A DNA stretch of 44,521 bases, taken from IMG/VR virus record IMGVR_UViG_2541047878_000001, positions 1-44,521 of that record; one strand, written 5' to 3'. The notes beneath the pieces are model-generated. The model ran no database searches. It saw only the letters and a list, made by a program, of their open reading frames with translations, and was not told the DNA's origin. Each line of letters starts with the position of its first letter. Within the stretch, counting starts at the first letter, position 1. Of this stretch, positions 39,397 to 40,221 are shown one piece after another. Both the position numbers and the translations under genes were made by a program. The stretch is from a virus. Taxonomy: Duplodnaviria > Heunggongvirae > Uroviricota > Caudoviricetes.

Positions 39397-40221
39397 TCAA
39401 AAATTAGGTGAGTAACGGACCGGGGACATAGCTCCTTTTTTTCTTAATTCATCTGGTATTTTTTTTCCAAGATAAAGATTTGCTATTTTAGGTGGGGCTT
39501 CTCGACCTTCAAAACCATAGCGAGAACTTTGTGTTGCCTCAAAGTCAGGATCTTCGTCCCAGTATTTCATCGTAGGGAAATTTTCACGTGTTGATTTGAG
39601 CCATTTATCAGCAATGAAAACTCCTCGAACGATCCCCCTTACAGTAGCAAGAATGACTTCTGCTTGGCTGGCGCGAGAGACATTAATGCGCCAGCTAAAT
39701 CGAACCGCATCATAAAGCTCTGAATCCTTTGCACTTCTGTTAACGGAAATCATTAATGCTTTATGATGAAATGTTATGGTTTCGGGTTGATATGTTGCTA
39801 TCAACTCTTTGACATGCGCGGCGCCGAATTCATTGCTGCCAGCACCATTCATGATATTCGTTAACCCAGGGTAGGCATCAATAAGTGCTGCTTCAACTTC
39901 GTACGCCGTCTTTTCATCAGTCATTCCGTGTCGATGGATGACATGGATAACCTCAAGTCCTGCTAACCTTATTTCTCTAATTTGCTTTAGCTTGTTGCTC
40001 AGTAACTCGTCATCATCAGTCGCTGCCACTTCACCGCGCATATGGGCAAATACGCGGTTACCTTTGCCTTTCCCTACATAGAAGGTGCTTCCGTCCCTCG
40101 GATCAATCAATCGGTATACATACCAGCCAAGGTGTTCAATTACTCCAGAAGGAAACTCAGTAATATCCATTTTGCAATATCTATGAATTATTTGTGAGAC
40201 GTATATTAATGAACATTGCAA
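39397..40221 (-). CDS. GIY-YIG nuclease-domain protein with uncharacterised C-terminal domain (274 aa)
   Basis: N-terminal GIY-YIG-like motif ([27 protein letters not shown]) then a conserved R and E; AT-rich; immediately downstream of the invertase. Confidence 0.55.

Follow-up and report, generated by a model that had tools for sequence, protein, structure and literature searches.

An e14-related prophage very probably carries an intact allele of the modification-dependent restriction enzyme CMoRE/PD-T4-3 behind its pin invertase

The gene that follows the pin invertase of an e14-related prophage is very probably an intact copy of CMoRE/PD-T4-3, a single-protein modification-dependent restriction enzyme carried as accessory prophage cargo (a "moron"). 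The window analysed here is the whole stretch of 44,521 nucleotides of the viral record IMGVR_UViG_2541047878_000001, and the coding sequence lies at 39397-40170 on the minus strand (257 aa plus stop; stop codon 39397-39399, ATG 40168-40170). Single-gene modification-dependent restriction had been the leading guess of a first-pass annotation of this DNA, and the identification of the gene as a 98%-identical allele of CMoRE/PD-T4-3 bears it out. The gene is thus already known, as one more allele of a published defence enzyme whose record runs from discovery in 2022 through a role in the native host in 2025 to biochemistry and crystal structures in 2026, and which about every sixth complete E. 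coli genome contains. The value for annotation is that entries named "LEM-3-like GIY-YIG domain-containing protein" or "hypothetical protein" in RefSeq can be named CMoRE/PD-T4-3, and the predicted phenotype of the lysogen is resistance to T-even phages.

The minus-strand frame is open from 40221 to 39397, with 274 codons counted from a TTG in the ORF listing. This frame had been reported earlier as a 274-aa gene at 39397-40221; the frame exists, but the start does not hold, since the TTG at 40221 is merely the first possible start of the longest ORF. The true start is the ATG at 40170, giving 257 aa, because the RefSeq start, the profile registers and the published residue numbering all agree. 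RefSeq places the start of the gene in identical DNA of strain FDAARGOS_1284 (WP_001389149.1) at this ATG, residue 1 then pairs with position 1 of the PADLOC and PHROG profiles, and the published Y17/Y19/Y31 numbering falls in register. No obvious Shine-Dalgarno sequence was found before the ATG. The gene is AT-rich, as had been noted: its G+C content is 43.3%, whereas the window as a whole has 50.2% and the stretch 9001-36000, made up mostly of phage replication and structural genes, has 53.5%. The roughly 175 nt 5' of the ATG (40171-40344, minus strand) are nearly unchanged in an alignment with the same region of O157:H7 strain 7636 and strain 98221 and are the presumed seat of the gene's own promoter. 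A consensus scan of this interval on the minus strand gave no sigma-70-like site. Judged from its conservation, this upstream region would drive expression of the gene in the lysogen.

Searches with the 257-aa protein point to one family over its full length. The PADLOC profile PD-T4-3 (PDLC04031), which stands in that collection for a single-gene defence system, matches residues 1-256 on profile positions 1-255 of 256 (E 7e-140), and PHROG 5356, a family of unknown function, matches with E 3e-143. A search against solved structures gave end-to-end matches to PDB 9U75/9U8D (residues 1-257, E 1e-171) and 9U7U/9U7Z (E 4e-150), which are the CMoRE structures of E. coli O157:H7 and APEC O1, respectively (Liu et al., Nat Commun 2026, PMC12923530). 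The O157:H7 protein studied is named in the Methods of that paper as WP_000355475.1. When both genes are translated, 252 of the 257 residues are identical, the differences being T51A, E55D, Q169K, N197H and K228E. Codon differences between the two genes comprise 19 synonymous and 5 non-synonymous changes, and purifying selection on the protein is therefore indicated. The allele of strain 98221 differs from that of the window by one residue only. No NCBIfam model matches the protein.

The GIY-YIG motif seen by the first-pass annotation at the N-terminus is real. Pfam LEM-3_GIY-YIG matches residues 28-110 above its gathering score (E 2.1e-14), and the Pfam GIY-YIG family covers residues 16-100; the nuclease domain region as a whole corresponds to 39847-40170 (minus strand). 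Counting the ATG at 40170 as residue 1, the GIYxY-YIG motif reads W16-Y17-V18-Y19 ... F30-Y31-V32-G33. All of Y17, Y19, Y31, R39, R80, V92, L96 and Y127 are kept, V92 and L96 being the tetramer-interface residues; the roles of these residues are taken from Liu et al. (PMC12923530). The acidic autoinhibitory loop, residues 52-55 (40006-40017, minus strand), reads DDDE here and DDDD in O157:H7; its function is known from the mutant 4A of the same paper. The C-terminal half, described earlier as an unassigned domain, indeed matches no Pfam family, but it has meanwhile been assigned by experiment as a modification-sensing domain (PMC12923530). With an approximate boundary at residue 119, this domain (aa 119-257, 39400-39816, minus strand) includes Y127 and matches 9U75 except at Q169K, N197H and K228E. 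The length of 257 aa is that of type I CMoRE proteins, with no extra domains. As far as sequence can tell, every defining feature of CMoRE/PD-T4-3 with type I architecture is present in the window gene.

Since the best Pfam family is LEM-3_GIY-YIG and one RefSeq product name is derived from it, the protein might also be read as a housekeeping or phage nuclease of the LEM-3/UvrC type, acting in DNA repair or on particular DNA structures, and Liu et al. have reported UvrC as the closest structural neighbour of the CMoRE nuclease domain (PMC12923530). That likeness is limited to the catalytic domain; over its full length the protein matches a defence protein whose action against phages has been demonstrated. 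The gene is moreover accessory, with about 17% of complete genomes of E. coli carrying it, and lies in prophage cargo, and a repair nuclease is accordingly given hardly any probability. A homing-type nuclease had been offered earlier as the alternative to restriction. Under this reading, a free-standing GIY-YIG homing endonuclease would propagate itself by cleaving a particular site in prophage genomes that lack the gene. The GIY-YIG domain agrees with it, as do a weak partial match of residues 17-151 to PHROG 314 "homing endonuclease" (E 0.0015) and the fact that the gene forms a discrete AT-rich insertion between repeats. Pfam finds GIY-YIG families only, with no homing-endonuclease DNA-binding module, and the repeats on both sides are accounted for as pin/dinI spacer copies, not as a homing target. 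The near-identical O157:H7 protein cuts T4 DNA genome-wide without strict sequence requirement and spares unmodified DNA (PMC12923530). The published specificity largely refutes homing, which is left as an exceedingly improbable account of the gene.

The activity of CMoRE/PD-T4-3 is well documented. Vassallo et al. (2022, PMC9519451) were the first to find PD-T4-3, in the strain ECOR68. Deletion of PD-T4-3 in its native host NILS69 resulted in sensitivity to T-even-type phages (bioRxiv 10.1101/2024.12.20.629700). Liu et al. have characterized O157:H7 CMoRE as a type IV enzyme specific for DNA containing 5-hydroxymethylcytosine (5hmC) or glucosyl-5hmC (PMC12923530). In BL21 it lowered the plating of T2, T4 and T6 about 10^5-fold, and cells bearing it survived a high multiplicity of infection, indicating direct, non-abortive defence. 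The purified enzyme prefers Mg2+ or Mn2+ and degraded 5hmC or glucosyl-5hmC DNA while sparing C or 5mC DNA; likewise, T4(hmC) was restricted and T4(C) escaped. Cuts were of the form CN11/N9G with 2-nt 3' overhangs, required two modified cytosines and fell across the whole T4 genome. In the structures, a GIY-YIG domain at the N-terminus is followed by a C-terminal sensing domain, for which no homologue in sequence or structure is reported, and the protein forms a tetramer (PMC12923530). Y17, Y19 and Y31 were required for activity, and the V92S/L96S double mutant broke the oligomer and abolished defence. The acidic loop covers the active site, and changing its four acidic residues to alanine led to cutting of ordinary DNA and to toxicity. 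[quoted passage not shown] A Capnocytophaga homologue has been reported to cut T4 DNA and not T4-GT7 DNA, its active-site mutants being dead (PMC12366544). The experiments that the first-pass annotation had proposed, with T4 variants carrying glucosyl-hmC, hmC or C and with mutants of the GIY-YIG residues, are thus already in print for a protein that differs at five residues (PMC12923530).

Carried over to the window protein, the mechanism published for O157:H7 CMoRE would run as follows. The protein would form a tetramer, as a dimer of dimers, in which the C-terminal domain would bind 5-hydroxymethylcytosine or glucosyl-5hmC and a dimer would read two modified cytosines about 21 bp apart (CN11/N9G). 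The GIY-YIG domain, through Y17, Y19 and Y31 together with the catalytic Arg and Glu and with Mg2+ or Mn2+, would then make a double-strand cut with 2-nt 3' overhangs. The acidic loop 52-55 over the active site would exclude ordinary and 5mC DNA, so that host and prophage DNA would be spared. The predicted outcome is direct, non-abortive defence against T2, T4 and T6 of about 10^5-fold.

The window allele is expected to have the same activity as O157:H7 CMoRE because only five residues differ and no residue named in the paper is lost. Slight shifts in specificity or stringency are possible, since the sensing domain contains three of the substitutions and the autoinhibitory loop another, a conservative D-to-E exchange. 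A stronger form of this reservation is that the five substitutions have silenced the allele or shifted its specificity, for example to other hypermodified bases. The substitutions at 169, 197 and 228 lie within the sensing domain, and the family appears plastic, the Capnocytophaga homologue cutting Mu DNA (PMC12366544) and O157:H7 CMoRE being weakly active on arabinosyl-hmC phages (PMC12923530). Native-promoter strength also varies between alleles, that of APEC O1 being weak (PMC12923530). Against this, the proteins are 98% identical with every named functional residue kept, the excess of synonymous changes indicates a protein under selection, the upstream region is almost identical to that of the active O157:H7 allele, and strain 98221 has an allele one residue away. 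A silent or respecified allele is therefore considered very improbable, if slightly less so than a repair or homing nuclease, and an active CMoRE is the reading followed below.

The host element is an e14-related, full-length prophage of about 43.8 kb integrated at thrW. The gene for tRNA-Thr(CGU) (1369-1444) is adjoined by a tyrosine integrase gene (1459-2622, minus strand), and the 3' 48 nt of the tRNA recur about 650 nt past the window end in the identical region of FDAARGOS_1284. This recurrence sets the size of the prophage, and the interval from pin to the window end therefore lies wholly inside it. Blocks of 90-98% identity to K-12 e14 cover the ymfL-ymfN, terminase, baseplate/ymfQ, tfa and pinE regions. 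A megablast search of the CMoRE locus against 50,697 phage records gave no match; this prophage type is therefore absent from that collection at the DNA level. Among 5426 complete E. coli genomes, DNA of the locus was found in 930, nearly always on the chromosome. Roughly 2200 E. coli genomes have a pin homologue.

The pin invertase gene occupies 38748-39338 on the plus strand (Pfam Resolvase E 1.6e-51, plus HTH_7), with the RefSeq start at window position 38784 and the stop codon at 39336-39338. Over 828 nt the pin region is 93.7% identical to e14, and the similarity ends at 39339, one base past the stop codon. In e14 the order is pinE, mcrA and then the attR relic icdC, so that the "mcrA-equivalent position" assigned earlier to the window gene is exact. 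A full-length relative integrated at icd also has mcrA after pin, followed by the icd attR relic, and the relatives in O157:H7 and strain 98221 have CMoRE in this slot. In O157:H7 strain 7636, WP_000355475.1 is annotated directly after pinE, in convergent orientation. Two unrelated type IV enzymes, McrA and CMoRE, thus fill one post-pin slot in sister prophages. The slot has other contents elsewhere. In a dusA-integrated relative it holds a dinI-like gene and an integrase, and in the ssrA-integrated relative of E. coli EC1515 (6790-8514 of comparison locus L006) it holds three ORFs of 70, 114 and 343 aa. These three ORFs gave no Pfam or PADLOC match and are candidate cargo. In the window, the gene is flanked by convergent pin on one side and a spacer copy with a dinI relic on the other, and the pin-to-attR interval holds no methyltransferase or nuclease partner for CMoRE.

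Elsewhere in the prophage, several other accessory genes were observed. A low-G+C island (43-45%) holds a gene for a 289-aa protein (15277-16146, minus strand), which matches the PADLOC candidate system PDC-S42 at full length (E 8e-33) and no Pfam family, and an adjoining 140-aa ORF (14592-15014, minus strand) without matches. An N6/N4 DNA methyltransferase gene at 16761-17813 on the plus strand (Pfam N6_N4_Mtase E 1e-42, PADLOC MTase_II E 3e-152) has no obvious partner nuclease and presumably encodes an orphan methylase that counters restriction; its presence is compatible with that of CMoRE, an enzyme inactive on C or 5mC DNA. IS1 transposase ORFs (5430-6127) adjoin a ParA-like AAA_31 ATPase gene (6325-7401, minus strand), near which lies a CI-like HTH/S24 repressor gene (7572-8333, minus strand), in the part of the window with the lowest G+C (37-41%).

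The gene had been described as bounded by repeat copies a and b, and both copies are where this places them. Copy a (39338-39374) comprises the first 37 nt of a pin/dinI spacer family, listed as direct-repeat family D2. It forms a hairpin between the convergent stop codons of pin and CMoRE, with a fold of -21.1 kcal/mol (z -2.9), and is 89% identical to copy b over the 37 nt. Copy b (40359-40548) consists of the full pin/dinI spacer and the decayed 3' end of a dinI-like gene on the minus strand. It reaches 40456 when compared with copy c, the third direct-repeat copy (43029-43126; 82% over 98 nt), and 40548 when compared with relatives elsewhere; against the pin-dinI interval of ETEC H10407 it is 83% identical over 205 nt. 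Residues 51-82 of a DinI-like protein were recovered by tblastn at 40547-40467, interrupted by a stop codon. When 141 nt around copy b served as query, 15,462 places matched in 5408 of the 5426 complete E. coli genomes, the median being three per genome. Examples lie between pin and a convergent dinI-like gene in ETEC H10407, at the right end of Qin in K-12 derivatives and in the ykgJ-ecpE intergenic region. It was also observed that the spacer repeat is about 100-190 nt long, occurs in up to nine copies per genome and lies mostly at prophage ends; further copies were seen in three comparison loci (L008 2501-2622, L007 2501-2625 and L001 34964-35077). Copies b and c fold into two hairpins, the second of which has an apparent compensatory change (CUGGCUGG/CCAGCCG against CUGGAUGG/CCAUCUA). 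At a permissive threshold Rfam gave no family for the repeats; the same search yielded terminator-like noise at 42776-42994 only, where the terminator hairpin itself is 42848-42889, plus 17 nt of the tmRNA 3' end at 43019-43035, which proved to be an ssrA attachment-site relic. Two other accounts of the repeats were rejected. They are not a shared feature of e14, where no copy of repeat a was found with three mismatches allowed, and they are not copies of the thrW attachment site, as the thrW 3' end recurs only past the window end.

Relics of other attachment sites lie beside the repeats. Immediately left of copy b stands a 20-nt relic of the anticodon arm of serU, tRNA-Ser(CGA) (40345-40364), of which the window keeps CGGACCGGTCTCaAAAACCG. 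A longer piece, the 3' 66 nt of serU, is found at this place upstream of CMoRE in O157:H7 and strain 98221, as checked against K-12 serU; in the comparison loci L005 and L003 the relic lies at about 7600-7680. The 20-nt piece is probably the remnant of an older attR, which suggests that a prophage integrated at serU once had CMoRE as its final gene ahead of attR. Similarly, a fossil attR of an ssrA-integrating prophage (42960-43035, ssrA in minus-strand sense) abuts copy c. The 28 nt immediately left of copy c are identical to the 3' end of tmRNA (ssrA), and the roughly 50 nt before this relic hardly differ from the right arm of an e14-like prophage integrated at ssrA (L006 8677-8750). The serU and ssrA relics would record the transfer of cargo between prophages with different integration sites.

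From this arrangement, the 5.9 kb beyond pin would represent three segments, each of spacer, cargo and attR relic. The first consists of CMoRE and the serU relic, the second of the dinI relic, two small ORFs, a CapP/CapH-like pair facing a BRO-N gene and the ssrA relic, and the third of an S1-family peptidase gene and the true thrW attR. The segments may have come from sister prophages at serU, ssrA and thrW and have been linked through short stretches of homology to the sequence that immediately follows the pin stop codon. The motif AAACC is part of invertase crossover sites, and Pin acting at quasi-sites was considered as an agent of the joining. The junctions, AAACCG and GAACCCGC, gave only a half-site-like match, which lends this no support and leaves plain microhomology. 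More generally, the pin-to-attR interval of e14-family prophages might be a general, uncatalogued defence hotspot whose contents are exchanged and stacked at the pin/dinI spacer of about 100-190 nt. This is a tentative proposal that is more doubtful than probable; a literature search found nothing specific on a "pin-distal" hotspot. If it were true, the S1 peptidase, the CapH/CapP-like pair and the BRO-N gene could be new defence or counter-defence genes, and CMoRE would still be a known enzyme.

The neighbouring cargo genes were also inspected. An ImmA/IrrE metallopeptidase gene (40861-41394, minus strand; PADLOC capP E 5e-15) and an HTH protein gene (41398-41775, minus strand; capH E 6e-11) are divergent from a gene for a BRO-N domain protein (42082-42843, plus strand), and the small ORFs of the same module lie at 40592-40735 and 40725-40874, both on the minus strand. 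The layout is that of a damage-responsive switch of the CapH/CapP or ImmR/ImmA type over a putative effector or antirepressor. The last gene before attR (43529-44521, plus strand) encodes a 330-aa S1-family (trypsin-like) peptidase, in which only the protease domain resembles PADLOC entries (RT-Protease_XI, LmuA, HamA) and an N-terminal region of about 110 aa has no assignment. It may be uncharacterised cargo.

Among known systems, McrA (EcoKMcrA) of K-12 e14 occupies exactly the slot of the window gene, in that it directly follows the pinE stop codon and has attR on its far side. It is likewise a single-protein type IV modification-dependent restriction enzyme, but the two share no sequence relationship and are encoded on opposite strands. 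McrA is a positional and functional counterpart only, and e14 also lacks the repeat family that flanks the window gene. The nuclease motif of McrA is of the HNH type and its substrates are 5mC/5hmC DNA; McrA is not known as a GIY-YIG protein. No McrA or HNH family appeared among the Pfam, NCBIfam and PADLOC results for the window protein. The 5hmC/ghmC-dependent restriction enzymes of the PvuRts1I/AbaSI type cleave at a set distance from a symmetrical pair of modified cytosines, with a nuclease fold of the PD-(D/E)XK type in place of the GIY-YIG fold of CMoRE. They belong to the same functional class, and no sequence relationship of the window protein to them was detected. For cleavage of Mu DNA with carbamoylmethyl-adenine, a trait of the Capnocytophaga homologue, nothing comparable is known among the E. 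coli alleles. Liu et al. have likened CMoRE to PvuRts1I for its recognition of 5hmC and 5ghmC (PMC12923530). PD-T4-3Capno from Capnocytophaga is a distant homologue in another phylum, of the same family and reported to be 48% identical to PD-T4-3, which at high concentration also cuts Mu DNA carrying carbamoylmethyl-adenine (PMC12366544). Closest of all is O157:H7 CMoRE, which has the same length, two-domain layout, GIYxY-YIG motif, acidic loop and tetramer-interface residues as the window protein, differs from it by the five substitutions given above, and shares its genomic position, in convergent orientation to pinE within a prophage associated with thrW. The surroundings differ in that the window prophage is full length and has CMoRE followed by a second copy of the pin/dinI spacer, whereas the O157:H7 gene is followed by the 66-nt serU relic and an AraC-family gene.
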